Positions 22,421 through 38,225 of a stretch of 64,000 nucleotides of DNA are shown here, one piece after another. The stretch covers positions 109,277 through 173,276 of IMG/VR virus record IMGVR_UViG_3300012286_000299; one strand, 5' to 3'. The translations under genes and the position numbers were made by a program. Every line of letters starts with the position of its first letter. Position 1 is the first letter of the stretch. The stretch is from a virus (Duplodnaviria; Heunggongvirae; Uroviricota; Caudoviricetes). The notes beneath the pieces were generated by a model, which saw only the letters and a list, made by a program, of their open reading frames with translations, did not search any database and was not told the DNA's origin.

Positions 22421-23384
22421 ACAAATCCCACCAGTATTAAAGGATCTTAAGAAGGTAATAGTTCCACCCGTCAACTACGAAGTTAATAAGTATATATCGT
22501 ATTCTCAATTAAGTATGTTTTCTAACTGCCCTTTTCAATGGGGTTTGAGATATAGAGATGGCTTTAAAGTATTTGAACCAAGTATACACGCGGTATTTGG
22601 AACAGCATTACACTTAACTCTACAAAACTATTTAACAGTATTGTATGAAGAAAGTGGTGTAGCAGCAGATCATTTAGATATTGAGACAGATTTTAAAAAT
22701 GCTTTAAAAAACGAATACAAACTTACTTTAGAAAAGAATAATAATGTTCATTTTTCTACAGCTGCGGAATTAGCAGAATTTTGTGATGATGGGATTCAAA
22801 TCCTTAATTTCATTAGAGAAAAACGAGCTGCTTACTTTTCTAAAAAAGGTTGGTATTTAGTAGGTTGTGAGTTACCAATTGTTTTGAACCCTATTAAAAC
22901 TCTAGAAAAAGTCTTTATAACAGGTTTTATTGATGTAGTGTTTTACCATGAACCAACTAATACAATTAAGATTCTTGATATAAAGACTTCAACTAGAGGT
23001 TGGGGTGACAAAGAAAAGAAAGATGATGTTAAAGTGACTCAAATACTTCTATACAAAAAGTTCTTTGCAGAACAATATGATTTCCCAATGGATAACATTG
23101 AGGTAGAATTCTTTATTACAAGAAGAAAAGTATATGAAGGTGGAGATTTCCCACAAAAACGAATTCAAGAATTTAAACCTGCTGCAGGTAAAATAAAATT
23201 GAATAAATCTACACAATTATTAGAAGGGTTTTTAAAACAAGTATTTGATTCTGAAGGGAATTACAATATGGCCGAATTAGAGAAAAAACCAAGTAAACGT
23301 AATTGTCATTTTTGTCCTTACAAAAATAATCAAGATTTATGTGATAAAAACGAGGATATTAAAAAAACATTCAAATTTTATTAG
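22413..23384 (+). CDS. PD-(D/E)XK exonuclease, Cas4/AddB-like with Fe-S cysteines
   Basis: GFIDVVF...ILDIKTS (D...DxK), QILLYK (QxxxY), an N-terminal Cys plus C-terminal CHFCPYKNNQDLC. The track start is TTG; the true start is uncertain. Confidence 0.75.
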   Translation: MAKQIPPVLKDLKKVIVPPVNYEVNKYISYSQLSMFSNCPFQWGLRYRDGFKVFEPSIHAVFGTALHLTLQNYLTVLYEESGVAADHLDIETDFKNALKNEYKLTLEKNNNVHFSTAAELAEFCDDGIQILNFIREKRAAYFSKKGWYLVGCELPIVLNPIKTLEKVFITGFIDVVFYHEPTNTIKILDIKTSTRGWGDKEKKDDVKVTQILLYKKFFAEQYDFPMDNIEVEFFITRRKVYEGGDFPQKRIQEFKPAAGKIKLNKSTQLLEGFLKQVFDSEGNYNMAELEKKPSKRNCHFCPYKNNQDLCDKNEDIKKTFKFY

Positions 23385-23425
23385 AGTACATATATTTATA
23401 TATAATAACAATAAAAATATAAATT

Positions 23426-23614
23426 ATGTCACAAAATCAACAATTAACAAGTGTGAAGGTAGACAAAGATATCTTTGAAGCTTTCAAAATTGAGACTATT
23501 AAAACTAAGTTCTCATTACAAAAATTAGCAGATAGGTGTATGCATCTATACTTAACAGACCCTGAATTTCAAAAAATGGTTCACGATCATATGAATTTGG
23601 AATTAGAAAAATAA
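23426..23614 (+). CDS. small protein, possibly a ribbon-helix-helix DNA binder
   Basis: SVKVDKDIFEAFKIETIKTKFSLQKLADRCMHLY has a strand-helix-helix pattern (tentative). Confidence 0.5.
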   Translation: MSQNQQLTSVKVDKDIFEAFKIETIKTKFSLQKLADRCMHLYLTDPEFQKMVHDHMNLELEK

Positions 23615-23619
23615 AATTT

Positions 23620-25044
23620 ATGAAAGAAGGTTATATACCAAAAGAACAAAGAAAAAAGATATTATTCATTTGTGATGATATCAGAATGCACTCGGGTGTA
23701 GCTACAATGGCTCGAGAAATAGTTTTAGGAACCTCTCACCATTATAACTGGGTAATAATTGGAGCAGCTATTGATCATCCTGAATCAGGACAAAGATTAG
23801 ACTTATCTGATGCTACTAACAAAGAAACTGGAAATGAGGATACAAATGTAATTATCTATCCTAGTAATGGATATGGAAGTGCTGATTTAATCAGATATAT
23901 GATAAAGAATGAAAAACCTGATGGGTTAATGTTCTTTACGGATCCAAGATATTATGACTGGTTATTTGCTATCGAAAATGAAGTAAGAAAACAAATACCA
24001 ATGATTTACTTAAACATTTGGGATGATTTACCTGCTCCACTTTATAATAGAGCATTCTATGAATCATGTGATGCTTTATTAGCTATCTCAAAACAAACCA
24101 AAAACATTAATGAAATGGTTTTAGGTAAAAAAGCAGATGGTAAAGTTATCTCTTATGTACCTCATGGTATTAATGAAAAAATGTTTTATCCTATAGAAGA
24201 TAAAACACAGTTACAAGAAACTAAGAAAAAATTATTTGGAGATAAAGAATTTGATTTTGTATTATTCTTTAATTCACGTAATATTAGGAGAAAATGTACT
24301 AGTGATTTATTAGCAGCTCATAAAATGTTTTTAGATTCTTTACCTAAAGAAAAAGCTGATAAAATTGCCTTAGTATTACATACACAAGTTGTAGATAATA
24401 ATGGTACTGATTTAGATGCTGTTAGAACTTTATTATTTGGTAAGAAATCAAACATATTCTTTTCAGATCAAAGAATTGATACTGCTGAGTTAAATAGAAT
24501 TTATAATATATCTGATGCTGTAGTATTACCTTCTTCAAATGAAGGATGGGGATTAGCAATAACTGAAGCTATGATGGCTGGTAAAATGATAATCGCTAAT
24601 GTAACTGGAGGTATGCAAGATCAAATGCGTTTTGAGGATGAAAATGGTAAATGGATTGAATTAACACCTGAATTTCCTTCTAATCATTTTGGTACTTATA
24701 AAAAATGTGGTAAGTGGGCTGTACCTGTATTCCCTAATAACATGTCATTAGTAGGTTCACCTATAACTCCTTATATTTGGGATGATAGATTAGATTTTAG
24801 AGACTTAGCAAATGCTATTAATCAGGTTTATGAATTATCTCCTGAAGAAAGAGTAGAAAATGGTAAAGCAGCTAGAGAATGGGTAACTTCTGATGAATCT
24901 GGTATGAGTGCTAGAATGATGTGCAATAATGTAATTAAAGATATTGATTTAACTTTAGAAACATTTAAACCTAAAAAATCATTTGATCTACTTTTAGTAG
25001 AAGATTTGGAACCTCTAGAATTAGTTCATAAATTAACGTATTAA
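23620..25044 (+). CDS. GT-B glycosyltransferase (GT4-like)
   Basis: LPSSNEGWGLAITEAMMAGKMIIANVTGG (EX7E motif). Confidence 0.8.
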   Translation: MKEGYIPKEQRKKILFICDDIRMHSGVATMAREIVLGTSHHYNWVIIGAAIDHPESGQRLDLSDATNKETGNEDTNVIIYPSNGYGSADLIRYMIKNEKPDGLMFFTDPRYYDWLFAIENEVRKQIPMIYLNIWDDLPAPLYNRAFYESCDALLAISKQTKNINEMVLGKKADGKVISYVPHGINEKMFYPIEDKTQLQETKKKLFGDKEFDFVLFFNSRNIRRKCTSDLLAAHKMFLDSLPKEKADKIALVLHTQVVDNNGTDLDAVRTLLFGKKSNIFFSDQRIDTAELNRIYNISDAVVLPSSNEGWGLAITEAMMAGKMIIANVTGGMQDQMRFEDENGKWIELTPEFPSNHFGTYKKCGKWAVPVFPNNMSLVGSPITPYIWDDRLDFRDLANAINQVYELSPEERVENGKAAREWVTSDESGMSARMMCNNVIKDIDLTLETFKPKKSFDLLLVEDLEPLELVHKLTY

Positions 25045-25102
25045 TTAGATAAGATAAGTTTTCCATTGGGTACATATATTTATTATCATAAATACGTACC
25101 TA

Positions 25103-25774
25103 ATGGATTATCAAAGAATTTACAACCAATTAATAGAAAAAGCTCAAAGTAGAACCTTAGAAGGTTATATTGAAAAACATCATATTATCCCTAAATGTCT
25201 AGGAGGAAGTAATGATAAAGAAAATTTAGTAGAATTAACAGCAAGAGAACATTTTTTATGTCATATGTTACTTTGTGAGATTTATCCTAAAGAAAATAAA
25301 CTAAAACATGCCTTATTTTTAATGTCTATTGGTAAACAAAGGATTAAAGAAAAACATTATGTTGTTGGTTCTAGAGTTTATGAAAGGCTTAAAACTGAAT
25401 ATTCTCAATTTTTAACAGGTAAAAAACAATCACAAGAAACTAAAGATAAAAAGAGTAAAGCTATGTTAGGAATTTGGGAAGATAAAACCCAAGAAGAAAA
25501 ATCTAAGATAGGACAAAAAAGATGGGACACTAGAATCAAAAATGGGACTACTAATATTAAAAGTATTAATAGAAGTAAATCATTAAAGGGTAGAGAAATT
25601 ACATGGGACCGAGGAGTTAATAAAATCATTATTCAATATGATAAACAAAATAACTTTATTAAAGAATGGTCTAGTATATCAGAAGCTCAAAGGCAAATAG
25701 GAGGGGATATTAAAGGTGCTTTAGCAGGGAGGCAAAAAACTGCTGCAGGTTTTATTTGGAAATACAAAAACTAG
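25103..25774 (+). CDS. HNH homing endonuclease with a C-terminal HTH tail, inserted between two GT genes
   Basis: EKHHIIPKCLGGSNDKENLVELTAREH. Tail reads WSSISEAQRQIGGDIKGALAGRQKTAAGFIWKY. Confidence 0.85.
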   Translation: MDYQRIYNQLIEKAQSRTLEGYIEKHHIIPKCLGGSNDKENLVELTAREHFLCHMLLCEIYPKENKLKHALFLMSIGKQRIKEKHYVVGSRVYERLKTEYSQFLTGKKQSQETKDKKSKAMLGIWEDKTQEEKSKIGQKRWDTRIKNGTTNIKSINRSKSLKGREITWDRGVNKIIIQYDKQNNFIKEWSSISEAQRQIGGDIKGALAGRQKTAAGFIWKYKN

Positions 25775-25786
25775 TTATTATATTAA
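25756..25786 (+). promoter_or_regulatory. promoter, TTG-N20-TATATTAA
   Basis: The -33 TTG lies inside the 3' end of the HNH ORF. TATATTAA at 25779-25786. Precedes ORF 25798. Confidence 0.5.
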
Positions 25787-25797
25787 AATAAAAAAAA

Positions 25798-27105
25798 ATG
25801 AAAAATACATTTGTGATATCATGTCCCATAGATTGTTATGCAGGGTATGGAGCACGTTCACGTGATTTAGTTAAAGCGTTAATTAATTTAGATAAATACG
25901 ATGTTAAAATAATGCCTCAACGTTGGGGAAATACACCTTGGAGTTTTATTGAAGATCATCAAGAAGAATGGGGATTTTTACAACCACATATTTTAACAGG
26001 TCAGTTAACTCAACAACCTGATATTTGGGCTCAAATAACAGTACCTAATGAATTTCAAGCTATTGGAAAATATAATATTGGAATAACAGCGGGTATCGAA
26101 ACTACTATTTGTGCTCCTCAATGGATTGAGGGTATGAATAGAATGAGTTTAAATTTAGTTTCATCAGAACATGCTAAAAAAGTATTTCAAGATTCTAAAT
26201 TTCAAAAACATGATGAAAGGACTAAACAAGTTGTTGGTGTAATAGAATTAACATCTCCTATTGAAGTATTATTTGAAGGAGTAGATATTGTTAAATACTT
26301 TGCATCTACATTAACTCCTACTTCCGAAATAAAGCAAGCCTTAGATAATGTAAAAGAAGAGTTTGCATTTTTATTTGTGGGTCATTGGCTTCAAGGTGAT
26401 TGGGGTCAAGATAGAAAAGATGTAGGAGGGTTAGTTAGAGTATTCTTAGAAGCCTTTAAAAATAAATCTAAAAAACCTGCTCTTATATTAAAAACAATGT
26501 CAGGTCCAACTAGTATTATAGATAGAGATAATATCTTGAAAAAAATAGACGTTATAAGACAATCTATGCCTACTAAAAACTTACCTAATATTTACTTATT
26601 TCATGGTGAAATATCAGACGATGAAATGAATCAATTATATAACCATTCTAAAGTAAAAGCAATGGTTAGTTTTACTAAAGGAGAAGGATTTGGTAGACCT
26701 TTACTTGAATTTACTCAAACTAAAAAACCAGTTATTGCTTCAAATTGGAGTGGACAATTGGATTTCTTAAACCCTGAATTTACTTCATTAATACCTGGTA
26801 CTTTAACTAATATTCATCCATCTGCTCAAGTTAAGGATATGTTAATTGATGGTTCACAGTGGTTTACAGTAGATTATGGATTTGCTGGTGGTATATTAAG
26901 AGATTATTTTGAAAATTATAAAAAATATCAAGATAATGGTAAACGTTTAGCACATTATTGTAAAACTAATTTCTCATTTGAGAAAATGCAAGAAAAATTA
27001 GATACTATATTAACTGCTAATATACCTGAGTTTCCAAAGCAAGTGCAATTGAAATTACCTCAATTAAAAAAGGTTGAGTTACCTAAATTAAAAAAAGTAG
27101 AATAA
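25798..27105 (+). CDS. GT-B glycosyltransferase
   Basis: SFTKGEGFGRPLLEFTQTKKPVIASNWSG (EX7E-like). Confidence 0.75.
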   Translation: MKNTFVISCPIDCYAGYGARSRDLVKALINLDKYDVKIMPQRWGNTPWSFIEDHQEEWGFLQPHILTGQLTQQPDIWAQITVPNEFQAIGKYNIGITAGIETTICAPQWIEGMNRMSLNLVSSEHAKKVFQDSKFQKHDERTKQVVGVIELTSPIEVLFEGVDIVKYFASTLTPTSEIKQALDNVKEEFAFLFVGHWLQGDWGQDRKDVGGLVRVFLEAFKNKSKKPALILKTMSGPTSIIDRDNILKKIDVIRQSMPTKNLPNIYLFHGEISDDEMNQLYNHSKVKAMVSFTKGEGFGRPLLEFTQTKKPVIASNWSGQLDFLNPEFTSLIPGTLTNIHPSAQVKDMLIDGSQWFTVDYGFAGGILRDYFENYKKYQDNGKRLAHYCKTNFSFEKMQEKLDTILTANIPEFPKQVQLKLPQLKKVELPKLKKVE

Positions 27106-27106
27106 A

Positions 27107-27559
27107 ATGAAAGATAAATTATCTATATGCCCACGTTGCGGGAGTGATGCTTGTTATGTCACTCCTGTAAATGAAGTAAAAAACAACTATTTCTGTTTTG
27201 GATGTGGTTTTCAAACAAATGACCTAATGAAAGAAGGTGAATTTGATTTTGAAACATATGAAGAACCATTACCTGAACTATATAAAGATCTTAAAAACAC
27301 TGATTCAGAAAAACGTGTTTGGTATCCAATTACTATTAATATTCAGGATAAAGGAACGGTATTTGCCAATGGAAAAACCAAAGATAATTGGACATGGGCA
27401 GGAGTAAAGGCCGTTGAAGTAAGCGAAGAAGAAAAAGGTAAATTTAAAATACCTGGTACTGAAGATTACTATACTCATAAAACTGATATTAAATCTTTAA
27501 AGAATTATCCACAAGATGATTTTATTGAAGCCCTAGATTATATAGGTTTTTATAATTAA
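27107..27559 (+). CDS. zinc-ribbon protein
   Basis: CPRCGSDAC ... CFGCG. Confidence 0.6.
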   Translation: MKDKLSICPRCGSDACYVTPVNEVKNNYFCFGCGFQTNDLMKEGEFDFETYEEPLPELYKDLKNTDSEKRVWYPITINIQDKGTVFANGKTKDNWTWAGVKAVEVSEEEKGKFKIPGTEDYYTHKTDIKSLKNYPQDDFIEALDYIGFYN

Positions 27560-27562
27560 TAT

Positions 27563-28180
27563 ATGAGAATAAGTTATGCAATTCCTGTTTGTAATGAACA
27601 TGAAGAATTAATGAGATTACTAAGCATCCTCATCACCAATAAAAGAGATGAGGATGAAATAGTAGTTCAATGTGATCAGGGTAATACTACACCTGAAGTA
27701 TATAAAGTATTAGACCAATTTTTTGGTAGAATAAGTGTTATAGAATTTCCATTAAAAGGTAATTTTGCGGCTTTTAAAAATAATTTAAAGAAGCATTGTA
27801 CTGGAGAATGGATTTTTCAAATTGATGCTGATGAATACGTAACTATTGAATTTTTACAAAGTTTACATTTAATTTTACAAGATAATCCTACAACAGAAGT
27901 ATTTTTGCTTCCTAGAATTAATACTGTAGAAGGATTAACTCAAGAGCATATTAATAAATGGAGATGGAATGTAAATGAGAAAGGATGGGTTAACTTCCCA
28001 GATTTACAACCTCGTATACTTCAAAATTCACCTAAAATTAATTGGGGTAATAAAGTACATGAAGTACTAATGGGTCATAGTACATGGTCTACTTTACCAT
28101 TAGAAGATGATTATTGTCTGTATCATCCAAAACATATTGAAAGACAAGAACGACAAAATAATTTATACGATTTATTATGA
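27563..28180 (+). CDS. GT-A (family 2-like) glycosyltransferase
   Basis: ISYAIPVCNEHEEL ... QIDADEY (DxD). Confidence 0.7.
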   Translation: MRISYAIPVCNEHEELMRLLSILITNKRDEDEIVVQCDQGNTTPEVYKVLDQFFGRISVIEFPLKGNFAAFKNNLKKHCTGEWIFQIDADEYVTIEFLQSLHLILQDNPTTEVFLLPRINTVEGLTQEHINKWRWNVNEKGWVNFPDLQPRILQNSPKINWGNKVHEVLMGHSTWSTLPLEDDYCLYHPKHIERQERQNNLYDLL

Positions 28181-29529
28181 TAAAATTTATAATATTTGAT
28201 TTAGATGGTGTTTTAGTAGAAGCCAAAAATATTCATTTTGAAGCTTTAAATGAAGCTTTAGGAAAAAAATATGAAATATCTTGGAATGAACATTTAAGTA
28301 AATATGATGGTTTAAAAACAAATCAAAAACTTGAAATGTTAACTCAAGATAAAGGGTTACCTGTTGCATTATATAAACAAGTTTGGGATGAAAAACAACG
28401 ATTAACTTTACATAAGTTAAAAAACTTACAACCTGATACTCAATTAATGGTTTGTATGGATTCATTAGTACAACAAGGTTATAAATTAGCAGTATGTTCA
28501 AATAGTATACGTAAAACTGTATTAACAGTGTTATCTAAATTAAATATAATTGAAAATTTTGATTTAATATTATCTAATGAAGACGTAAAGAATAGTAAAC
28601 CTCATCCTGAGATTTATTGGAAAGCCATATCACAAATGGGTTTTTTACCTGAGGAAACACTTATTGTTGAGGATTCACCTTATGGTTTACTAGCCGCAAG
28701 CAGGAGTAAAGCTTCTGTAATGAGAGTTGGATCCCCAAAAGATATTTCGTATAATAACATTTATAAATACTTAAACCAAGAAAAAATGAATTTAACACCT
28801 AAATGGAAAGATGACAAATTAAATGTTTTAATTCCTATGGCTGGAGCTGGTTCACGTTTTGAACAAGCAGGTTATACTTTTCCTAAACCTCTAATAGAAG
28901 TAAAAGGTAAACCAATGATCCAAGTTGTAGTTGAAAACTTAAACTTAGAAGCAAATTATATTTATGTAGTACAAAAAGCTCATAGACAAAAATATAACTT
29001 AGATACATTATTAAATCTAATTACACCAGGATGTAAAATTGTAGAGACTGATGGGTTAACTGAAGGAGCAGCATGTACTGCTTTATTAGCTAAAGAATTT
29101 ATAGACAACAATGCTCCATTGTTTTTTGCTAATTCAGATCAATTTGTAGAATGGGACTCAAATGAATTTATGTATAAAATGAATGAAACTAACGCTGATG
29201 GTGGTATTGTTTCATTTACTGCTACTCACCCTAAATGGTCATTTGCTAAAGTTGATGAAAACGGATTAGTAACTAAAGTTGCTGAGAAAAATCCTATTTC
29301 AGATATAGCAACTGTAGGATATTACTACTGGAAACATGGTTCAGATTTTGTTAAATATGCTGAGCAAATGATTGAAAAAAATATAAGAGTAAATAATGAA
29401 TTCTATGTATGTCCTGTATTTAATCAAGCAATTGAAGATTGTAAACAAATCCGAACTTTTAACACTAATGGAATGTGGGGTCTTGGAACACCTGAAGATT
29501 TAAATTATTATTTAGAACATTATGTATAA
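28177..29529 (+). CDS. bifunctional HAD phosphatase/mutase-like plus sugar-phosphate nucleotidyltransferase
   Basis: N-terminal IIFDLDGVLVEA (DxDG) ... VCSNS ... VEDSPYG. C-terminal LIPMAGAGSRF...KPLIEVKGKPMI. Confidence 0.8.
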   Translation: MIKFIIFDLDGVLVEAKNIHFEALNEALGKKYEISWNEHLSKYDGLKTNQKLEMLTQDKGLPVALYKQVWDEKQRLTLHKLKNLQPDTQLMVCMDSLVQQGYKLAVCSNSIRKTVLTVLSKLNIIENFDLILSNEDVKNSKPHPEIYWKAISQMGFLPEETLIVEDSPYGLLAASRSKASVMRVGSPKDISYNNIYKYLNQEKMNLTPKWKDDKLNVLIPMAGAGSRFEQAGYTFPKPLIEVKGKPMIQVVVENLNLEANYIYVVQKAHRQKYNLDTLLNLITPGCKIVETDGLTEGAACTALLAKEFIDNNAPLFFANSDQFVEWDSNEFMYKMNETNADGGIVSFTATHPKWSFAKVDENGLVTKVAEKNPISDIATVGYYYWKHGSDFVKYAEQMIEKNIRVNNEFYVCPVFNQAIEDCKQIRTFNTNGMWGLGTPEDLNYYLEHYV

Positions 29530-30322
29530 ATTACATATAGTAATACCTATTGGAGTAAGTTCACCTGGGACTCCAGTACCTGAATTTTTATTAAATGGTA
29601 TAGAAAGTTTAAAAGAACAAACATTAGATGATATTCTAATTACAGTAGCAGCTGACGAAAATATATCAGATGAATGTAAACAAGTATTAAAAGATACAGG
29701 TGTAAATGTTGAATGGTTTCCTGAGTATTCTTATTTTACTAAAGAAGGAATTTGGGGTAAAATATTTAAATGTTGGGAAAATTATGATTCACAATATGTT
29801 TCATTTCTTCATTATGATGATCTTTGGGAAAGTAATAAAGCTTTAAATCAAATTAATTTTATTGAAAAAAACAATTTAGATGGTTGTTGGTCCCAAGTAT
29901 ATCTTATAAATGATAATAATGAAATTACTAGTGGAGATAGTATGCAAATTAGTAAATTATCTGCTAATTCTGTAGGATATTTAATTCCATGGATGTGTCA
30001 TTCTACTATTATAAAAAAAGATACCATATTAAACTGTGGAATATTAGAATATAGAGAAAAATGGAATTGTGATTTTGAATGGTTATATACTGTATTTTTA
30101 CATAAAATTAAAAACCTAATGAAATGTGAGGATGCTATATTTTTATGGAGACAACATGAAAGTCAAGTATCACACGCTCAAGGGATTAATATGAAAGAAG
30201 ATAATAATCATGTTAAAGAACAAAGAGAACTTGTAGGTTATTCGTTTGATGAAACCATGGAAGATTCTCGTTATGTGATGGAAAATATAAATTTAGAGGA
30301 GATTAAAAAACTATACAAATAA
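29522..30322 (+). CDS. GT-A (family 2-like) glycosyltransferase
   Basis: LHIVIPIG...ESLKEQT...ILITVAADE...FLHYDDLW. Confidence 0.65.
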   Translation: MYKLHIVIPIGVSSPGTPVPEFLLNGIESLKEQTLDDILITVAADENISDECKQVLKDTGVNVEWFPEYSYFTKEGIWGKIFKCWENYDSQYVSFLHYDDLWESNKALNQINFIEKNNLDGCWSQVYLINDNNEITSGDSMQISKLSANSVGYLIPWMCHSTIIKKDTILNCGILEYREKWNCDFEWLYTVFLHKIKNLMKCEDAIFLWRQHESQVSHAQGINMKEDNNHVKEQRELVGYSFDETMEDSRYVMENINLEEIKKLYK

Positions 30323-30324
30323 AA

Positions 30325-31011
30325 ATGGAAAATTTAAATCAATATGTAAATATGCTTAATGAAGCATACAAAATGGGAACAAATAACCACCCAGAACACA
30401 ATTCAAATCCTAATTATTGGGGCTTACTTTTAAATAGTATTAAATCAAATCCTGAAAACTGGGATGGGAAAAAAGCACTTGATTTTGGGTGTGGTAAAGG
30501 AAGAAATGTAACTAATATGTTATCTTTAGCTAATTTTGAAAGAGTAGATGGTATAGATGTTAGTGAAGATAATGTTAGATACTGTAAAGAAATATACACT
30601 AATCAACCTTCTGACTTTTATAAAAATTCAGGGGAAGATTTATCTGATTTAAATGATAATGAATATGATTTTGTAATGAGTACTATTGTATTCCAACATA
30701 TTTGTGTACATGAATTAAGATATAAATTAAAAGAAGAAATATATAGAGTATTAAAACCTGGAGGAGAATTTTCATTCCAAATGGGATTTGGACCTATAGA
30801 TTGGAGTGGTAATACAAAACAGAGAACTTACTTTGAAAATGGGTATAACGCTGAAAATTCTAATGGAAGTAATGATGTTCGAGTATCAGACCCACAAGAT
30901 TTAGTTAATGATTTAAGTAAAATTGGTTTTAAAGATATTACTTATTCTGTTGAAGAGCCTTGGGAAGATGGAGGTCATCCTAATTGGATTTATGTAAAAT
31001 GTTTTAAATAA
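30325..31011 (+). CDS. SAM-dependent methyltransferase
   Basis: Motif I ALDFGCGKGRN, then LKPGGEF. Confidence 0.8.
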   Translation: MENLNQYVNMLNEAYKMGTNNHPEHNSNPNYWGLLLNSIKSNPENWDGKKALDFGCGKGRNVTNMLSLANFERVDGIDVSEDNVRYCKEIYTNQPSDFYKNSGEDLSDLNDNEYDFVMSTIVFQHICVHELRYKLKEEIYRVLKPGGEFSFQMGFGPIDWSGNTKQRTYFENGYNAENSNGSNDVRVSDPQDLVNDLSKIGFKDITYSVEEPWEDGGHPNWIYVKCFK

Positions 31012-31871
31012 TGAACACTTGTATATTTACAACTCATACCACTTTAAATTTAAAACATGCTGAATACAGTTTGAAGTCCCTATTGGGGCTTCAAAGTGTT
31101 GATGTGATATGGGATAATTTTATAATTTATAATACTCATGATCATGAATTGAGTAACTATGATTTAGTAAATTTAATTAAACAATTTGATGTTAAGAATT
31201 ATATTAAAAACCTTTTAATATTTCCTTATGATTCTGAAATAAATAAAAAAAATTTATTACAAGATATAAGAAATTGGTATGATATAGGATTATCATTAGA
31301 ATTACAAAACACACCAGGTAAAATGTTATGGTTAAAATCAGACTATTGTGTTTCTAATAATTTCAACCAAATATTCTTAGAACATAGTCTTAATAATTGT
31401 ATGTGGTCATTACCTACATTAGGGGCTAAACAAAAAATTAGTTATGACACTATATTAACTAAACTTAATTTACCTGAGTTTACTACATCAGATTTTGAAA
31501 CATATTATAGGGGAGGAGATAATCCTAATAATGAATTATCTAATGAAGAAATATCACCTAATGGAGAAATGGATTATCATCCATCTATAAATTATGTTTC
31601 TCATAATTACGTTCATGATTTTAACTTACATGTTATATCTAATGATACTTTAGAATTAGGTAGAGAATTAGCTTATCATCCTCAAGTATTCGATATGAAT
31701 TCAACATGGGGTGGTCCCCATAATTTATTTTATGGTTTGAAACAAAATGGAGTGTATTTTAGTGGTGAATATAGAGCTTATGGTATCCATATGTTTCATG
31801 AAATAATTTCTGAAAATAGGTTGGAAGACAGAGGAGATGATCGTAAATTACATATAGGAGAAAAATATTAA
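31011..31871 (+). CDS. hypothetical protein of the glycosylation island
   Basis: ORF track; TAATG coupling; no motif recognised. Confidence 0.6.
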   Translation: MNTCIFTTHTTLNLKHAEYSLKSLLGLQSVDVIWDNFIIYNTHDHELSNYDLVNLIKQFDVKNYIKNLLIFPYDSEINKKNLLQDIRNWYDIGLSLELQNTPGKMLWLKSDYCVSNNFNQIFLEHSLNNCMWSLPTLGAKQKISYDTILTKLNLPEFTTSDFETYYRGGDNPNNELSNEEISPNGEMDYHPSINYVSHNYVHDFNLHVISNDTLELGRELAYHPQVFDMNSTWGGPHNLFYGLKQNGVYFSGEYRAYGIHMFHEIISENRLEDRGDDRKLHIGEKY

Positions 31872-31877
31872 AAAATT

Positions 31878-32312
31878 ATGATACTAATTTCACATAGAGG
31901 GAATACAAACGGGAAGTTTGAATCCTATGAAAATGAACCTAATTACATTGATAAAGCCATATCAGAAGGATATGATGTTGAAATTGATATTTGGTGTATT
32001 GAAGGTCTTTTATTATTAGGACATGATAAACCACAATACGGTATAACACAACATTGGTTAAATGAACGACATGATAAATTATGGATACATTGTAAAAATG
32101 TAGAAGCTGTAGAATGGTTTAACATGATTAAAGGGTTTAATTATTTTTGGCATGAAGAAGATACAGTAACATTGACATCACATGGATTTATTTGGGCTTA
32201 CCCAGGTAAACAACCTATAAAAAATTCAATAGCAGTATTACCTGAAAAATACAATGATAATTTAAATCAATGTATAGGAATATGCTCCGATTATTTAAAA
32301 AATTATAAATAA
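31878..32312 (+). CDS. glycerophosphodiester phosphodiesterase (GDPD)-like
   Basis: ISHRGN...ENEPNYIDKAISEGYDVEIDIW follows the HRG..EN..E.D pattern. Confidence 0.6.
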   Translation: MILISHRGNTNGKFESYENEPNYIDKAISEGYDVEIDIWCIEGLLLLGHDKPQYGITQHWLNERHDKLWIHCKNVEAVEWFNMIKGFNYFWHEEDTVTLTSHGFIWAYPGKQPIKNSIAVLPEKYNDNLNQCIGICSDYLKNYK

Positions 32313-32908
32313 TGAAAAACAGAGTTATTTTAGGAGGACCTTTAAGAGGAAATATAAATAACTGGAATAAATTACAAGAATTATTCTCATTATTATCAGC
32401 TGAGGTATACGTGTCATCTTATACAAAATGGGAAAATGTTCCTTTTGAATATCATTATACTCAAACAAAACCCTTTTTAGATTTAACATGTTTTTCTCAA
32501 GGACAACATGTTCACAATGCTAGATATAAAGAACAATGGGAATCATTATATACTTGTTATTCTACCTTTTCTCCATCATTTTCAGAAGATGATATAATCT
32601 TTAAATTAAGAAATGATATATGTTTAGAATCTTCATTAAATATATTATTAGAACTCCAAATAAAAGATAATTACATACACGCTCCCAATACTGAATTTCA
32701 TATGAATTGTCCATTTGATGTGAATGTAGTATGTAATGACCAATTTTATATTTCTAAAAAACCAGTAGCTGATAAGATCTTTAATCTTCCTTATAATTTT
32801 GTATTTGATTCTAATAAAGATTTAGGTATAGAAGCTATTTTACGGGATTATATGTCACAACAAAATATCAATTTAGAAACATTTGAATTTAAATACTCCC
32901 GAGTATGA
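32312..32908 (+). CDS. hypothetical protein of the glycosylation island
   Basis: ORF track; TAATG coupling. Confidence 0.6.
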   Translation: MKNRVILGGPLRGNINNWNKLQELFSLLSAEVYVSSYTKWENVPFEYHYTQTKPFLDLTCFSQGQHVHNARYKEQWESLYTCYSTFSPSFSEDDIIFKLRNDICLESSLNILLELQIKDNYIHAPNTEFHMNCPFDVNVVCNDQFYISKKPVADKIFNLPYNFVFDSNKDLGIEAILRDYMSQQNINLETFEFKYSRV

Positions 32909-33618
32909 AGTTAGCAATTTGCATAAGTGGTCAACCTAGAAATTTTGAACAAGGTTATGAAAGTTTAAAAACTTATTTTTTAGACAAATATGATTGTGAT
33001 ATTTACTTTCATACTTGGAAAATTGATAGTTTTGAATCAACTAATTTTGGTTTTGGTAATCATCAATATAGTTTTGATAGAAATGATTATTATAGTTTAA
33101 ACTTTTTATATCAACCCAAAAATCACATTTTAGAAAATCCTATTATATTTGATAGTAGTGGTTATAAATGTCCAATTTGGAGACAACCACTAAATAATAC
33201 ATTAAGTATGTTTTATTCTATTTATAGATCTTTTCAATTAATTGAAGGGAATTATGATTATATTATAAGAACTAGATTTGATGTAAATTACTCTAAATTT
33301 AATTTGGAGTTTCCAGAAAAAGGTATTATATTACCAGAATGGAATACTGATATTAGAGTTAAATCTAGGGGTTATTATGATGTATTTGCTTTGGGTAAAC
33401 CCGAAGATATGAAAATATATTCACAAGTATTTTCAAATATTATATCTTATGTAACTAATGATGAAGATTTTCTTAACTTCTTAACAGGAGGTTGGCCTGG
33501 ACAAGACTCACCATTAAGAAATGAGTATTTATTAAAATGGCATTTATTAAAAAATAATATAAAAGTAAAAGAATTACCTACATTAGAAATAAAAGCTGAT
33601 GTTGGTTTAATAAGATAA
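32905..33618 (+). CDS. hypothetical protein of the glycosylation island (possible transferase)
   Basis: ORF track. The N-terminus MKLAICISGQPRN loosely echoes ORF 32312 (ILGGPLRGN). Confidence 0.6.
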   Translation: MKLAICISGQPRNFEQGYESLKTYFLDKYDCDIYFHTWKIDSFESTNFGFGNHQYSFDRNDYYSLNFLYQPKNHILENPIIFDSSGYKCPIWRQPLNNTLSMFYSIYRSFQLIEGNYDYIIRTRFDVNYSKFNLEFPEKGIILPEWNTDIRVKSRGYYDVFALGKPEDMKIYSQVFSNIISYVTNDEDFLNFLTGGWPGQDSPLRNEYLLKWHLLKNNIKVKELPTLEIKADVGLIR

Positions 33619-33619
33619 T

Positions 33620-34534
33620 ATGAAAGGAGTCATAACTATATTTGCATTACCCCAAGAATTAGAAGATTTATCTTTAACATTATATAACCTAAAAAGAAAT
33701 TCAGTTTATTTAGACCCACAAGACAAATATTCAGTAGACATAACATTATGTTTATCAGATGAATTAACAGATTGGAACAGTTCTATATTACCTAAAGATT
33801 ATATTGAACAACGAACTATTGAATTATGTAAAAAGTTTTTAGATTGGTGTGAATATGATTTAAATATTGAAAAAGGAGATAATATATTAGGATGTGTTTC
33901 TCAAAGACGATATAGTTTAAATAAACATCAAGATGCTGATTTTTTTATTTGGTTAGATTGTGATTTTATATTTAAAGATTCAACATTATCCTATATGGCT
34001 ACTGCATATCAAAATATAAAAGATATAGGAACTAATAATTTTATTCTAACCCCTCAATTTGTAAGACAATGGGACACTTCATGGGATGTATTAGTTAATG
34101 AAAAATTTATAAATCACCCTATATGTTACCACGAATCAGCAGATGTTTATATTGATACCCTTCCACAAAATGATGAAATACAAGTTAAACAAATCAATAA
34201 CATTAAATTTGCAGGTGGGTGGTTCACATTAATAACAGGTAAATTATTACAAGAAATAACTATCCCTGAATCTTTAGGCCATTATGGTTTAGAAGATAAT
34301 TTTGTTATTGAGTGTTCTAAAATACTACAACATAAAGGTGTAAATATATCTCAATTTATATTAGACGGACTTGTTATAGGTGAAAGTTATACTCATAGAC
34401 CAAATCAAACTATTAAAAATTTTATTACAAGTAAAAATAGAAAACAAGAATTTACTCAAATAGCACAAGATAATTTTCCAATTGAATTAAATAAATTTTA
34501 TGAAAGAAGTAACAGTAGTATTAACAGCCTGTAA
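33620..34534 (+). CDS. GT-A-like glycosyltransferase (tentative)
   Basis: FIWLDCDFIF DxD-type motif; context. Confidence 0.5.
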   Translation: MKGVITIFALPQELEDLSLTLYNLKRNSVYLDPQDKYSVDITLCLSDELTDWNSSILPKDYIEQRTIELCKKFLDWCEYDLNIEKGDNILGCVSQRRYSLNKHQDADFFIWLDCDFIFKDSTLSYMATAYQNIKDIGTNNFILTPQFVRQWDTSWDVLVNEKFINHPICYHESADVYIDTLPQNDEIQVKQINNIKFAGGWFTLITGKLLQEITIPESLGHYGLEDNFVIECSKILQHKGVNISQFILDGLVIGESYTHRPNQTIKNFITSKNRKQEFTQIAQDNFPIELNKFYERSNSSINSL

Positions 34535-35189
34535 TAGGGCAGATTTATTAGAACGAACTTTAGATAGTTTTTTCGAAATGAACACTTATCCTCTTAAACG
34601 TTTTATTATCATTGATGATGGGATGAATTTTGGATGTAATGATTTTGTTAAAGATAAATATGATTTTCCTATTGAATTAATTTATAATGATCCTAAATTA
34701 TATCAAATTAAATCTATTGATTATGCCTATTCTTTAGTTGATACTGAATATATATTTCATATGGAAGAGGATTGGTTATTTCTTAAATCAGGTTTTATTG
34801 AAGATTCAATAGAAATATTAGAACAAGATCCTAACATAGTTCAAGTATGGTTAAGAGGTTTAGATGATAAAACTTTAAATCACCCTTATTCTCCTGATTT
34901 ATATTCTAGTGGTGATAAAAAATTAGTAATGAATTTACCTAATGGAGTATGGGGTGGAATTAGTTTTAACCCGGGATTAAATAGATTAAGTGATTGGAAA
35001 TCATTTGCTAATGGTTATGATGGATGTACTAGATTAACTCCTCCAGAAAACAGTGGTGGTGTAACACTTGAATGTGATATATCATATGAAAACATTCAAC
35101 GAGGTAAAATCACTATGAGATTTGTAGAATCATACATAGAACATATAGGATGGGATAGACATATAATACACGGAATAAATGGAGAATAA
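34500..35189 (+). CDS. GT-A (family 2-like) glycosyltransferase
   Basis: VTVVLTACNRADLLERTLDSF...FIIIDDG...HMEEDW. Confidence 0.7.
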   Translation: MKEVTVVLTACNRADLLERTLDSFFEMNTYPLKRFIIIDDGMNFGCNDFVKDKYDFPIELIYNDPKLYQIKSIDYAYSLVDTEYIFHMEEDWLFLKSGFIEDSIEILEQDPNIVQVWLRGLDDKTLNHPYSPDLYSSGDKKLVMNLPNGVWGGISFNPGLNRLSDWKSFANGYDGCTRLTPPENSGGVTLECDISYENIQRGKITMRFVESYIEHIGWDRHIIHGINGE

Positions 35190-36384
35190 ATTTAATATAA
35201 GCAATATATCAGTTGTTGTACCAAGTTACAATAATTTAGAATACCTTAAATCTTTATATAAATCAGTTAGACAAGTTTCATCTGAAATTGAATTAATAAT
35301 GTTTAGTGATGGTTCAACTGATGGGACTAAAGAATGGTTAGAACAATTAAATGATTCTAATTCAATAATAAAATGTTATAATGAAAGAAAGGGACATACC
35401 TTATTATATGATGAAGGATTTTTATTAGCAACTAAAGAAATCATAGGTATATTACATGCTGATATGATTGTAAATAAGAATTTCTTTAATTCTATTATAA
35501 AACATATTGCTACTAATAATATAGTTTGTGGAACGTGTATAGAACCACCTTTACACCCACCTGGAGGAGAAAAACATATATTAGATCTTGGAATGTATCC
35601 TAATGAATTCAATGAGGATAAATTTAATAGTTTTTGTAATGATAAAGATGTAAATCAAATATCCGAAGGTATATTTGCTCCTTGGTTTTTACTTAAAGAT
35701 GATTATATATCAAAAATAGGTAAACATGATATTATATATGCTCCTTATGGATACGAAGATAGTGATCTATTTACTAGAATGGCTTTAGCTAATTTTAATT
35801 TTATACAAAGTAGAGATGCTTTTGTATATCATTTTACTCAAAGAGGTCATAAATGGACTAAAGGAGTAGGGATAGAAAATAATGATTATCAGTATCAAAT
35901 GGGTAAAACTCGAAAAGAATATATTAGAAAGTTTGGGAGTGATCCTAAATTTGATTTTAATCATAAACCTACCCCTTCACCTAAATATAATATTGCTTAT
36001 GTAGTTAAACATGCAAACATGCAAATAGTAGAAGTATTAGAACCTTGGTGTGATAGACTTTATATTGAAGACAGTATGCAAGTGATTACAGATTCTTATA
36101 GAGAAAAAGAACAACTAAATACCAAGTTTGATTTATCAAAAAGAGTTCTTACATTGGAGTATAATGATCCAAAAGGAGAGAATGACATCGTAGTAGAATT
36201 TGATGCAAAACAATTTACAAATGCCGATTTTGCTTTCTTACAAAGACTTCCTGAGATTATAAAAGATAATGGAGATATAGGTGAATTTGAATTTGATATA
36301 TTTAAAATAACTATCAATTCAATGACTGAATACCAAAATGATTTAATTTATTTTGATAAAAATAATATTTATATTAAAACATAA
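35179..36384 (+). CDS. family 2 glycosyltransferase
   Basis: ISVVVPSYNNLEYLKSLYKSV...FSDGSTDGT...HADMIV. Confidence 0.85.
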   Translation: MENKFNISNISVVVPSYNNLEYLKSLYKSVRQVSSEIELIMFSDGSTDGTKEWLEQLNDSNSIIKCYNERKGHTLLYDEGFLLATKEIIGILHADMIVNKNFFNSIIKHIATNNIVCGTCIEPPLHPPGGEKHILDLGMYPNEFNEDKFNSFCNDKDVNQISEGIFAPWFLLKDDYISKIGKHDIIYAPYGYEDSDLFTRMALANFNFIQSRDAFVYHFTQRGHKWTKGVGIENNDYQYQMGKTRKEYIRKFGSDPKFDFNHKPTPSPKYNIAYVVKHANMQIVEVLEPWCDRLYIEDSMQVITDSYREKEQLNTKFDLSKRVLTLEYNDPKGENDIVVEFDAKQFTNADFAFLQRLPEIIKDNGDIGEFEFDIFKITINSMTEYQNDLIYFDKNNIYIKT

Positions 36385-36387
36385 ATT

Positions 36388-36834
36388 ATGGAATTTAAAT
36401 TACGAGATTTTTTCTTAAATGAAGAACTTCTTAGAGAAGAAGGTGAACTAAATTATGAAGCCACTTTAGGAGGTGAAAAATTTAGAGTGGTAGTTGATGT
36501 AAATAAAAACCCAACTAAAAAAGGTATCAAGGTTAAATTTTTCCCTGTTAATGAACAAGGAATGGTCCTTAGTAACTTAACACCTGAAGAAATAGATACA
36601 TTACAAAATAGTATTGCAACTGCAGTAACATCAAAATTTACTGATTATGGTTTAGAATTTGATAGAGATACAGATGCCCCTGATAGACAAGCAGCTAATT
36701 TCCAAATCCCATTAGATTCAGTATTTGCTTTTATTAGAGATACAATATTAGGAGGAGGCGAAGAATCAAGTATGGAAACACAACCTACTGAAGTTCCAAA
36801 TGAAATAGGTTATGATGAAGAAGAAAACGCCTAA
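36388..36834 (+). CDS. hypothetical acidic protein
   Basis: ORF track. Confidence 0.6.
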   Translation: MEFKLRDFFLNEELLREEGELNYEATLGGEKFRVVVDVNKNPTKKGIKVKFFPVNEQGMVLSNLTPEEIDTLQNSIATAVTSKFTDYGLEFDRDTDAPDRQAANFQIPLDSVFAFIRDTILGGGEESSMETQPTEVPNEIGYDEEENA

Positions 36835-37135
36835 TTTAATTTTAACAAGCTATAGTTTAAGAGGGGTACTAGATACCCTTTTTAATACTGAAATTCAAAA
36901 TGTTTTATATAATGAAACTTTTGAAAGTATTAAAACTGCTTTACAAACTAAAAAACGAGAATGTGTTGTATGTAACATTGGGCAATTAGAAACAACTATA
37001 ACACTTTCTAAATCCAATTGGGAACCTGCTTTAAAATCAATATTAGACTTTTATGTTAAAATAGAAGATTATGATAAATGTTCTCAAATTAACAAATTAA
37101 TACAAGAATTAAATGGAGAAGGAAGTAAAAAGTAA
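36812..37135 (+). CDS. hypothetical protein with a UVR-like C-terminal motif
   Basis: EDYDKCSQINKLIQEL. Paralogous tails occur in ORFs 38609 and 53629. Confidence 0.55.
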   Translation: MMKKKTPNLILTSYSLRGVLDTLFNTEIQNVLYNETFESIKTALQTKKRECVVCNIGQLETTITLSKSNWEPALKSILDFYVKIEDYDKCSQINKLIQELNGEGSKK

Positions 37136-37532
37136 TCTTGAAGAGGGATTTAATAAACTTTTCAACACTACAGTTAATATTAAGAGACAAAAAAAGGATA
37201 AAGAATTAAGAAAAAAAACATTATTCATATCTCTTATTAAACAATATGAAGATGTTATATCTAATTCATTTAAATTATTTGAAGGTTTTGGAATTGATTT
37301 AAAAGATTATGAAGATAATTATCATCAAATCATAGATAAAGTGCTCTTACTAAGTTGGGGTGCTGATGTATATGAAATAATTAATTATTATTTATATGAT
37401 CGTTTCGCTATGGATGGATTACCTAATTGCATTATAGAAGAAGTAGAAGGTGTAGAACAAGAGGTATTTTTAAGTAACCCTGAAGAATTGTATAACTACT
37501 TAGTAAATATAAATCCGAATTTTTTAAAATAA
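37113..37532 (+). CDS. hypothetical protein
   Basis: ORF track. Confidence 0.55.
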   Translation: MEKEVKSNLEEGFNKLFNTTVNIKRQKKDKELRKKTLFISLIKQYEDVISNSFKLFEGFGIDLKDYEDNYHQIIDKVLLLSWGADVYEIINYYLYDRFAMDGLPNCIIEEVEGVEQEVFLSNPEELYNYLVNINPNFLK

Positions 37533-37535
37533 GTT

Positions 37536-38192
37536 ATGGGAACTAGAGGTAAAGCCCCTAAAATTTACTCTAAGGAAGATTTGTTACGTTCAATGAAGGT
37601 TACTAAGAGTATCAGAGCAGCTGCTCGATACTTAAACTGTTCATATCAACATATTAAACCTTATTTTAAATCATATCGAGTTGATGACAACGATCCCAAC
37701 TCGCCTACATTATTTGATGTTCATAAAAATCAATTAGGTAAAGGTATTCCTAAATTCCTAAAACATCATGGTAAAGACCCGGATTTACAGAAAATACTAA
37801 CAGGAGAGTTATACACTGAATCATTTAGTATAGACAAATTCAAACGTCGTTTAATTCAGGAAGCTATATTAGCTGAAGAATGTGTTTGTTGTGGATTTAA
37901 AGAACAACGTGTATCAGATTATAGAGTACCCTTATTAATTAATTTTAAAAATGGGAATAAACGAGATTGGAAACGAGAAAATTTAGAATTTCTTTGTTAT
38001 AACTGTTACTTCTTAACAATTGGAGATGTGTTTACTAAAAAACAAACACAGGATATTGAAGATTATAATGAGGGGTATAAAGCAAATCAGGTAACTTGGG
38101 AATTAGATGAATATGCTGAAGAGCATTTCCGTTCACTAGGGTTAATTGATACTCCAAATGAAGAAGATGACTTTGTTTCTTATAATAGATAA
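37536..38192 (+). CDS. HNH-type homing endonuclease-like protein with an N-terminal HTH
   Basis: SIRAAARYLNCSYQHI, then CVCCG...PLLINFKNGNKRDWKRENLEFLCYNCY (a degenerate HNH/zinc pattern). Confidence 0.55.
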   Translation: MGTRGKAPKIYSKEDLLRSMKVTKSIRAAARYLNCSYQHIKPYFKSYRVDDNDPNSPTLFDVHKNQLGKGIPKFLKHHGKDPDLQKILTGELYTESFSIDKFKRRLIQEAILAEECVCCGFKEQRVSDYRVPLLINFKNGNKRDWKRENLEFLCYNCYFLTIGDVFTKKQTQDIEDYNEGYKANQVTWELDEYAEEHFRSLGLIDTPNEEDDFVSYNR

Positions 38193-38194
38193 GT

Positions 38195-38225
38195 TTGGAA
38201 ATTTAAAATTTTCTTCGTATATTAT
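38195..38225 (+). promoter_or_regulatory. promoter, TTG-N20-TATATTAT
   Basis: TTG at 38195-38197 and a TTCGTATATT core. Precedes ORF 38243. Confidence 0.65.

Follow-up and report, generated by a model that had tools for sequence, protein, structure and literature searches.

Clusters that join many glycosyltransferases (GTs) to sugar-nucleotide enzymes are already known from aquatic phages: they occur in pelagimyophages (PMC7029224) and in cyanomyophages, with 13 GTs and 22 cell-wall genes (PMC12801897), and are annotated in the genomes of S-CAM9, S-PRM1 and the Flavobacterium phage vB_FspM_immuto (hereafter immuto). They rank among the commonest unexplained gene sets of aquatic phages, and the label usually given to them, "LPS-related auxiliary genes" (LPS, lipopolysaccharide) with which the phage would alter the surface of its host, is a prediction. 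Here we describe such an island, located at positions 23,620 to 36,384 of a 64,000-nucleotide stretch of phage DNA (the window; positions 109,277 to 173,276 of the IMG/VR record IMGVR_UViG_3300012286_000299, Caudoviricetes). Its existence as such will not surprise a specialist, and the view taken in a first reading of the DNA (the sequence-only reading) that multi-GT clusters belong mainly to giant viruses is outdated by the examples just given. What is added here is the frame-and-cassette structure of the locus, a frame that is restricted to phages and kept in phages of three host phyla, and predicted folds for two abundant unannotated families.

The cyanomyophage and pelagimyophage "LPS / cell-wall" clusters (S-CAM9, S-PRM1, S-SCSM2R, P-SSM2) are likewise assemblies of multiple GTs and sugar-nucleotide enzymes in T4-like aquatic phages, and S-CAM9 and S-PRM1 even share with the window a HAD–nucleotidyltransferase fusion (HADNT; about 60 % identity), a minimal GDPD-like enzyme (mini-GDPD; 45 %) and DUF7796 (23-26 %, three copies). 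The cyanophage islands, however, lie in hypervariable regions of auxiliary metabolic and host-recognition genes and are devoid of the conserved gene frame described below (GTB1-GTB2-Zn-ribbon-GT2a ... GT2d), whereas the frame of the window is a core feature of its lineage and sits in the replication module; for these clusters as for the window locus, functions are predicted from genes. Bacterial O-antigen and capsule loci show the same architecture of conserved flanks and a hypervariable centre, with dehydratase/epimerases, DegT aminotransferases, GT2 and GT4 enzymes and methyltransferases, but unlike the window locus they encode a priming transferase, Wzx/Wzy, an ABC transporter or other membrane components. 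Chloroviruses and mimiviruses, finally, carry glycans on capsids or fibrils that are made by virus-encoded enzymes. For mycobacteriophages, an account that cites Freeman 2023 (PMC12619734) mentions glycans on the virion as products of phage GTs and methyltransferases. All three virion-glycan systems, which assemble their glycans on structural proteins within the cytoplasm, resemble the window locus in their soluble viral GTs, their methyltransferases and, in some cases, sugar-nucleotide pathways, and in glycan gene sets that differ between clades; a further likeness is that the viral structures nearest to DUF7796 are those of giant-virus proteins. They differ in that a glycoprotein in the window lineage is a prediction from genes, and none of the GTs of the locus is a demonstrated ortholog of theirs.

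A conserved frame around a variable cassette

A small open reading frame (ORF), two GTs of the GT-B fold (GTB1 and GTB2), a Zn-ribbon protein and a GT of family GT2 (GT2a) stand at one end of the locus and a further GT2 enzyme (GT2d) at the other, and between these two ends lies a cassette that is different in nearly every relative. Immutovirus-like aquatic myoviruses, which are distantly T4-like, have this locus as part of their core, and the window holds the local version of it. In order to avoid the bias of sampling by HADNT, IMG/VR was scanned with a profile of GTB1, which has at least 600 relatives there, and 80 contigs or loci were analysed. A PD-(D/E)XK nuclease gene is found no more than three genes upstream in 73 of 75 loci, GTB2 adjoins GTB1 in each of the 65 loci that reach far enough, and the GTB1-anchored loci with at least 3 kb of downstream sequence contain the Zn-ribbon gene in 50 of 50 and GT2a in 49 of 50 cases. 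At the other end, GT2d closes the island ahead of conserved downstream genes in 16 GTB1-anchored loci.

Between these borders, 15 of 16 cassette compositions are distinct. An NAD-dependent epimerase/dehydratase is encoded in 25 of 37 GTB1-anchored islands, a DegT aminotransferase in 11 and HADNT in only 4, while the span from GTB1 to GT2d varies from 5.5 to 11.3 kb in the sampled loci. Minimal islands (loci L189, L165 and L187) hold little beyond the four frame GTs; the island of the window, 12.8 kb including an HNH insert, is large and has a rare cassette. An isolated acquisition of the island is not supported: the frame is lineage core and the cassette swappable.

Protein comparisons indicate that the source is a phage whose closest cultured relative is immuto, a 160-kb myovirus with T4-like gp20 and gp23. 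The immuto island (NC_055915, gp169-gp182) is preceded, as in the window, by GroES/EL, DUF3310, PD-(D/E)XK and a small ORF (60 aa, in the place corresponding to 23426), has the same frame (47-60 % identity) and is followed by the same conserved genes. Its centre of about 7 kb, however, is unrelated and encodes two WecE-type aminotransferases, an epimerase, an acetyltransferase, a methyltransferase and a mannosyltransferase; HADNT, GDPD and DUF7796 are absent, as is an HNH ORF between the GT-Bs. The island is annotated in GenBank, and neither a functional study of it nor functional data in the literature on immuto, Microcystis phage Mel-JY01 or DUF1599 were found; the existence of a cultured relative with the same frame makes the question of the acceptor answerable. 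At the nucleotide level, a megablast search of the island against 50,697 phage records gave no match, and relatives were recovered solely by protein-level searches.

The core of the frame is found in two further cultured phages. GTB1, GTB2 and GT2a are kept beside the same replication genes in Mel-JY01, and GTB1 and a GT2a-like ORF in Rhodothermus phage RM378; three cultured phages thus document the conservation across host phyla. For GTB1, identities are 60 % to immuto gp181, 34-52 % to Mel-JY01 and 27 % to RM378, neither glutamate of the EX7E motif (E308, E316) varies among 21 members of the family, and a weaker relative occurs in a 484-kb uncultured phage. GTB2 is 57 % identical to its immuto and 47 % to its Mel-JY01 counterpart, and GT2a 54 %, 41 % and 30 % to those of immuto, Mel-JY01 and RM378, respectively. 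The Zn-ribbon protein, for which no Pfam or PHROG match was obtained, is 47 % identical to immuto gp179 and was not detected in Mel-JY01. GT2d has a conserved C-terminal extension of about 170 aa and shares 49 % identity with immuto gp169 from end to end.

When one genome per species from ~185,000 species was scanned for the GTB1 family, there were 18 matches, all on contigs of metagenome-assembled genomes (MAGs; L174-L191) and none in an isolate bacterial genome. Every one of these contigs that is long enough shows a phage backbone, and the MAG labels are taxonomically incompatible (Pelagibacter, Woesearchaeota, Methanobacteriota, Nisaea, Ignavibacteria, Flavobacteriales, and others), i.e., the contigs are probably binning contamination by phage DNA. 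Since the GTB1 family was found only on contigs with a phage backbone, the frame appears to be an old, phage-owned set and not a recent capture of host LPS genes.

The acceptor of the putative glycan

We tentatively favour a strain-variable oligosaccharide that is assembled in the cytoplasm on an acceptor made by the phage, most likely its virion proteins. In such a scheme, the four frame GTs would build a common core oligosaccharide from host nucleotide sugars, which the cassette would then elaborate: HADNT might supply an additional activated sugar or polyol phosphate, mini-GDPD might make or trim a phosphodiester, the methyltransferase at 30325 would methylate the glycan, and GT2b, GT2c, the two DUF7796 GT-A proteins and perhaps the product of 33620 would add further residues. 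A phosphodiester-linked glycan, as had been proposed at the outset, is a reasonable hypothesis. The outcome would be a strain-variable glycan coat on virions, as in mycobacteriophages, chloroviruses and mimiviruses; that virions in a very abundant lineage of aquatic phages bear an O-antigen-like coat of this kind is a possibility we take seriously without yet counting on it.

Several observations point in this direction. The island encodes what virus-directed glycosylation of virions is made of, namely soluble viral GTs together with a methyltransferase and a sugar-nucleotide enzyme. No membrane segment was detected in any island protein (maximum Kyte-Doolittle 19-residue mean 1.38), and because all of them are soluble, assembly is expected in the cytoplasm. 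The frame is restricted to phages and shared among phages of hosts from different phyla, for which reason the phage itself most likely provides the acceptor, and a frame that is old and phage-owned suggests that the first acceptor is one common to these phages rather than a host-specific surface glycan. The combination of such a fixed four-GT frame with an O-antigen-like variable cassette furthermore points to diversifying selection on the glycan. The sequence-only reading had leaned towards a cytoplasmic acceptor as well, and this inclination gains new support from the phage-restricted frame in phages of Flavobacterium, Microcystis and Rhodothermus.

A number of points weigh against virion proteins as the target. 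A virion glycan in this lineage is a prediction from genes, and the conservation across phyla amounts to three cultured phages. Placed within the replication module, the locus seems to share a transcript with clamp-loader genes and not with structural genes, although co-transcription is weak evidence on timing and compatible with a late-acting product. Sequence and fold do not separate GT4 or GT2 enzymes that act on proteins from those acting on lipids or DNA, and known DNA-directed GT-Bs resemble MshA and BshA, as GTB1 does. Soluble GTs, moreover, can also act on undecaprenyl-linked intermediates of the host.

This last property is the basis of the strongest competing explanation, which we nevertheless regard as rather unlikely: soluble phage GTs would modify lipid-linked intermediates of the host O-chain, capsule or other surface glycans, and the flippase and ligase of the host would export the altered product, thereby masking receptors (superinfection exclusion) or sparing progeny the adsorption to debris. 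Remodelling of the envelope is the published interpretation of the pelagimyophage and cyanomyophage clusters (PMC7029224, PMC12801897), which is itself, however, a prediction from genes. The chemistry of the cassettes is typical of O-antigens, given the above frequencies of 4,6-dehydratase/epimerase and DegT genes along with FkbM methyltransferases and GT10-like enzymes, their hypervariability is like that of O-antigen loci, and O-antigen GTs are mostly soluble or peripheral too. Yet the membrane components of Wzx/Wzy-, ABC-dependent or GtrABC systems are missing from the island: no Pfam domain of a priming transferase, flippase, polymerase or ABC transporter matched any of its proteins, in agreement with the original failure to recognise a flippase, polymerase or priming transferase, and none is a membrane protein. 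It is also difficult to reconcile with a host-surface target that phages of Bacteroidota, Cyanobacteria and Rhodothermus have retained the frame GTs although their hosts differ in surface glycans, and the failure to find the frame GT-B family in any isolate bacterial genome argues against recent capture from host LPS loci.

Hypermodification of DNA is less probable again, and we consider it unlikely. Here, an oligosaccharide on a modified base would block restriction and CRISPR nucleases, with modification-dependent nucleases driving the variation of the cassette. The location is suggestive, as the locus is embedded in a replication/nucleotide-metabolism module beside a PD-(D/E)XK nuclease and the clamp loader, with a MazG-like NTP pyrophosphatase at 12502, and DUF1599 ("nucleotide modification associated domain 1") lies directly upstream of the frame in many relatives. 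There are also precedents with a similar parts list. The poly-arabinosyl-5-hydroxycytosine (5hoC) clusters of RB69 and DLP3 comprise GT4-like GT-Bs, a HAD-type phosphatase and a sugar-1-phosphate nucleotidyltransferase (PMC13326640), and methyltransferase/TET (MT/TET)-dependent systems attach mono- to tri-saccharides to 5-hydroxymethylcytosine (5hmC) by GTs that are encoded near polymerase and clamp genes (bioRxiv 10.1101/2023.12.21.572611); phage DNA is now known to bear more than one or two glucoses, which outdates the earlier premise on its glucosylation. In GT-B type, HAD-type phosphatase, nucleotidyltransferase, T4-like background and proximity to replication genes, these clusters are thus like the window locus. 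Unlike it, they come with a ThyA homolog carrying D169N or N177D or with a methyltransferase plus dioxygenase, and they have far fewer transferases; the seven or more GT-fold enzymes of the island would imply a glycan bigger than any known on DNA.

All characterised sugar hypermodifications have as their starting point a hydroxylated pyrimidine, which is provided by an altered ThyA homolog or by a methyltransferase and a dioxygenase. The ThyA-like gene at 6274-7509, which the sequence-only reading had taken as a hint at a DNA target, does not bear this out. Its product keeps L143, C146, D169 and N177 (numbering by the E. coli sequence; a PDB alignment shows the same motifs) and is 52 % identical to E. 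coli ThyA; although it is, at 411 aa, enlarged by about 147 residues in insertions, all catalytic and specificity residues are canonical. A role as hypermodification enzyme (synthase of 5hmC, 5-hydroxymethyluracil (5hmU) or 5hoC) is ruled out by these diagnostic residues, which mark it as a canonical dTMP synthase, and because ThyA is canonical, no T4- or RB69-type DNA acceptor is evident. The ThyA of immuto (423 aa) is 57 % identical to that of the window, which suggests that it shares the insertions. A TET/JBP oxygenase or C5-methyltransferase was found neither among the window ORFs scanned nor in the complete annotation of immuto, so that no enzyme for a hydroxylated pyrimidine of the T4, RB69 or TET type appears in either set.

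The only recognisable DNA-modification system of the lineage is that for 7-deazaguanine, which offers no hydroxyl acceptor. Its presence is predicted from gene content: immuto encodes QueC, QueD, QueE, QueF, FolE, DpdA and a PurN-like protein, with DpdA at the syntenic position, and the window encodes QueD, QueE, FolE and a phosphoribosyltransferase-like ORF at 9406-11903. Homologs of the immuto DpdA, QueC, QueF and PurN-like proteins were not detected in the 64-kb window; either these genes are located in another part of the genome, or the pathway is a different one. It strikes us as very improbable that phage DNA bears a methylated glycan of several sugars, possibly with phosphodiesters, on an acceptor other than a hydroxylated pyrimidine, for example, a 7-deazaguanine side chain. 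If it were true, it would constitute a new class of DNA hypermodification, with the cassette as a DNA "serotype".

It is improbable that part of the locus, especially HADNT and mini-GDPD, acts in metabolism during host takeover instead of decorating a glycan (release of phosphate or glycerol-3-phosphate from glycerophosphodiesters, conversion of lipids to glycolipids, or synthesis of a glycoside solute): such a metabolic or small-molecule role would fit the pairing of the two genes in 72 of 83 HADNT-anchored loci on unrelated phage backbones, the occurrence of GDPD without adjacent HADNT in a 324-kb contig, the lysophospholipase D types among GDPD-fold enzymes and the weak NCBIfam matches of GTB1 to small-molecule or lipid GT4 enzymes (MshA, BshA, monoglucosyl-diacylglycerol synthase), but these matches are far below the family cut-offs and generic for GT4, HADNT and GDPD are found elsewhere among epimerases, aminotransferases, methyltransferases and many GT families, and a simple metabolite would not need seven or more transferases.

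Inventory of the island and folds of the cassette enzymes

Table 1. Features of the glycan island and the small ORF that opens its conserved unit, in window coordinates.
Feature	Position	Strand	Remarks
Small frame ORF, 62 aa	23426..23614	+	directly upstream of GTB1; conserved in 102 loci
GTB1, frame GT-B (GT4-like)	23620..25044	+	Glycos_transf_1 1e-12, 48.2 bits; EX7E at residues 308-316
HNH/NUMOD1 homing-endonuclease-like ORF	25103..25774	+	HH..N..H motif; between GTB1 and GTB2
GTB2, second frame GT-B	25798..27105	+	Glycos_transf_1 1.4e-8, 34.9 bits; EX7E at residues 296-304
Zn-ribbon frame protein, 150 aa	27107..27559	+	two CxxC pairs
GT2a, frame GT-A (GT2)	27563..28180	+	Glycos_transf_2 2e-11, 44.5 bits; DAD motif at 88
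HADNT, cassette HAD (beta-phosphoglucomutase family) + sugar-1-phosphate nucleotidyltransferase fusion	28177..29529	+	HAD_2 1e-31; NTP_transferase 7e-13
GT2b, rare cassette GT2	29522..30322	+	Glycos_transf_2 2e-7, 31.5 bits
Cassette S-adenosylmethionine (SAM)-dependent methyltransferase	30325..31011	+	Methyltransf_11 3e-18; DFGCGKG motif
Cassette ORF, 286 aa	31011..31871	+	accompanies 32905, 33620 and 34500 (about 9 loci)
Mini-GDPD-fold phosphodiesterase-like enzyme, 144 aa	31878..32312	+	usual partner of HADNT
Divergent DUF7796-like ORF	32312..32908	+	hhalign against the DUF7796 family
DUF7796 protein, predicted GT-A fold	32905..33618	+	structure prediction
Cassette ORF, 304 aa	33620..34534	+	invariant D115 in a 'DCD' motif
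GT2c, cassette GT2	34500..35189	+	Glycos_transf_2 4e-12, 46.8 bits; EED motif at 89
GT2d, closing frame GT2	35179..36384	+	Glycos_transf_2 1e-18, 68.3 bits

The island comprises 15 ORFs, all on the + strand and separated by gaps of -35 to +58 nt (Table 1), exactly as first described; its conserved unit begins one ORF earlier, at 23426. The GT tally stands at six by sequence profile, one by predicted fold, one probable paralog and one suspect. Both GT4-type GT-Bs score above the Pfam gathering cut-off (Glycos_transf_1, 26.4 bits) and have the expected motifs, and of the four or five GT2 enzymes proposed initially, four exceed theirs (Glycos_transf_2, 23.3 bits), whereas 33620 is a suspected GT-A. 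The motifs cited at the outset (EX7E, DxD-type, DLDG, GAGSR and HRG/EN/ExD/HD) are without exception present. The nucleotidyltransferase fusion and the methyltransferase, whose Pfam matches also exceed the gathering thresholds, and the zinc-ribbon protein likewise proved to be as proposed, so that a sugar-activation enzyme of its own, many GTs, a methyltransferase and a phosphodiesterase-fold enzyme are all present in the island. Among three ORFs listed as unknowns, only 31011 is still devoid of any Pfam, PHROG or profile-profile match (including hhalign against the GT families of the island); the other two are discussed below. Several cassette genes are rare: besides L003, the window's own contig, GT2b was found in a single related locus (L006), and the methyltransferase and GT2c each occur in 8 of 83 HADNT-anchored loci. 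A family profile of the 62-aa frame ORF has its best PDB profile match in the Omega ribbon-helix-helix repressor at a sub-threshold E value of 0.37; a ribbon-helix-helix DNA-binding protein is thus possible, but this is a lead only.

The ORF at 25103 had been read as a homing endonuclease that landed inside the island, and this interpretation is borne out by its HNH motif and its scattered occurrence at a junction that close relatives have intact, even though the Pfam score is below the cut-off (HNH 1e-3, 19.6 versus 21.4 bits; NUMOD1 6.6e-3) and a PDB sequence search gave no match. At this recurrent insertion point, GTB1 and GTB2 abut (<100 nt) in 91 of 105 loci; L092, L162 and L165 have homologous ORFs there. 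A second HNH/NUMOD1-like ORF is located downstream of the island at 37536-38192, in a position that, unlike that of 25103, is kept in many relatives and in immuto (annotated as HNH endonuclease); it may represent a fixed or domesticated copy.

HADNT, mini-GDPD and DUF7796, three very abundant and essentially unannotated families, can now be placed in phage glycan cassettes. Relatives of HADNT (motifs DLDG and GAGSR) number 421 in IMG/VR, and proteins of the Synechococcus phages S-CAM9, S-PRM1, S-8S55, DSL-LC03 and B3/B23 share about 60 % identity with it. The N-terminal domain of HADNT belongs to the beta-phosphoglucomutase branch of the HAD-IA superfamily (HAD_2, 110 bits) and may be a mutase or a phosphatase; the NCBIfam matches (TIGR02009 3.5e-28, bPGM 8.5e-26, rmlA_long 5e-13) are all below the equivalog cut-offs, with 91.1 versus 189.4 bits for TIGR01990 and 99 versus 153 for TIGR02009, and the PDB matches are 4evw (7e-17) and beta-phosphoglucomutases (about 1e-13). 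The C-terminal domain is predicted to be a generic sugar-1-phosphate nucleotidyltransferase, whose sequence names no substrate.

The product of 31878, a family of 3,355 clusters, is modelled as a minimal GDPD-fold enzyme of the TIM-barrel type. The GDPD motifs for catalysis and metal binding (HR(G), E-N, E-x-D and H-D) are present, their residues (H6, R7, E18, N19, E35, D37 and H49) are invariant in 60 sequences, and the family profile aligns the N-terminal catalytic motifs to those of the solved GDPD 7e0v (E 1.4e-3). At 144 aa, however, the protein is much shorter than solved GDPDs (218–330 aa), a single-sequence PDB search gave no match, and none of the 60 family members matches a Pfam GDPD model, for which reason we call it GDPD-fold or GDPD-like rather than a member of the GDPD family; the original label is thus supported by motifs, fold and family profile, but not by Pfam.

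For 32905 (DUF7796), structure prediction indicates a GT-A fold, which would make it the probable seventh glycosyltransferase and the family one that is common to giant viruses, its nearest viral structures being those of Catovirus, chlorovirus MT325, Fadolivirus, Tupanvirus, CroV and cyanophages. DUF7796 occurs in 34 of 86 clustered loci (HADNT-free loci included), with three paralogs in S-CAM9. Its neighbour 32312 is probably a remote DUF7796 paralog with a GT-A fold: BLASTP of the two proteins showed nothing, and it took a profile-profile comparison with the DUF7796 family (hhalign probability 82 %, E 1e-5) to reveal a nearly full-length similarity; tblastn found no match to 32312 in any related locus, i.e., it is seen in this phage only. 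The product of 33620 is suspected to be a GT-A enzyme, given a Pfam GT2 match in 1 of 18 family members (1.6e-3) and an hhalign E value of 0.014 against GT2a; the window protein itself has no Pfam match and no PDB profile match, and none of the 1,626 homologs retrieved from 5.8 billion proteins has an annotated domain. For 33620 as for 31011, the PDB profile search, Pfam scans of family members, hhalign and the homolog search led to no assignment.

In other phages, the genes around the HADNT/mini-GDPD/DUF7796 trio encode epimerase/dehydratases, DegT aminotransferases, FkbM and other methyltransferases, a TPP enzyme as well as GT10-like, GlcNAc-transferase and HtrL-type enzymes, and because these neighbours are glycan-type enzymes, the module can be said to reside always in polysaccharide-type mosaics. 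In one sub-lineage (L021, L024, L027, L029-L037, L045, L080 and others), HADNT and GDPD are found upstream of PD-(D/E)XK, right after gp62 and DUF1599 and hence outside the GT frame, with other cassette genes optional; the module therefore moves between sites. The two genes are also separable, as the 324-kb jumbo-phage-like contig mentioned above (L084, GCA_902725225.1) carries a mini-GDPD homolog (74 % identity) beside a DUF454 gene and not adjacent to HADNT.

Genomic setting

The window is identical to a 23.9-kb Logan contig (L003) that was assembled from run ERR3489837. Its replication genes are T4-like, and the island is flanked by a split family-B DNA polymerase (PolB), GroES/GroEL, the gp44/gp62 clamp loader, a PD-(D/E)XK nuclease and an ATP-dependent ligase, in addition to ThyA, QueD, QueE, FolE and the MazG-like pyrophosphatase. 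A pelagimyophage origin, suggested by the low GC content, GroEL and the T4-like backbone, was dropped, as no cultured phage has a PolB more than 34 % identical (the best being that of Mel-JY01) and the GT frame matches immuto.

From the clamp loader at 20574 to 39429, the genes follow one another with no real gaps, and this run is bracketed by strong G+C-rich hairpins at 20538-20559 and 39454-39470. The arrangement suggests that the island is co-transcribed with the replication genes, and the two hairpins may bound a single transcription unit. A scan for σ70-type promoters yielded fewer sites than shuffled sequence and was uninformative.

The polymerase is encoded in two ORFs (14085-15812 and 16077-17012; 575 and 311 aa) that lie ~265 nt apart, whereas Mel-JY01 has its PolB in one piece (about 848 aa). 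An ORF similar to His-Me finger endonucleases (13540-14085) is found just upstream, and a mobile element may have caused the split. The flanks further encode a CCA-adding or poly(A) polymerase-like enzyme, a YqeY-like, an SPFH/Band-7 and a DUF932 protein (within 43443-44180, 45038-45490, 49568-50407, 51778-52575 and 55298-55367), and in the same group ARAGORN made one odd tRNA-like call with a two-base anticodon. At the opposite end of the window, a 354-aa ORF (47-1111) contains a PARP catalytic domain (1e-16) and possibly encodes an ADP-ribosyltransferase.

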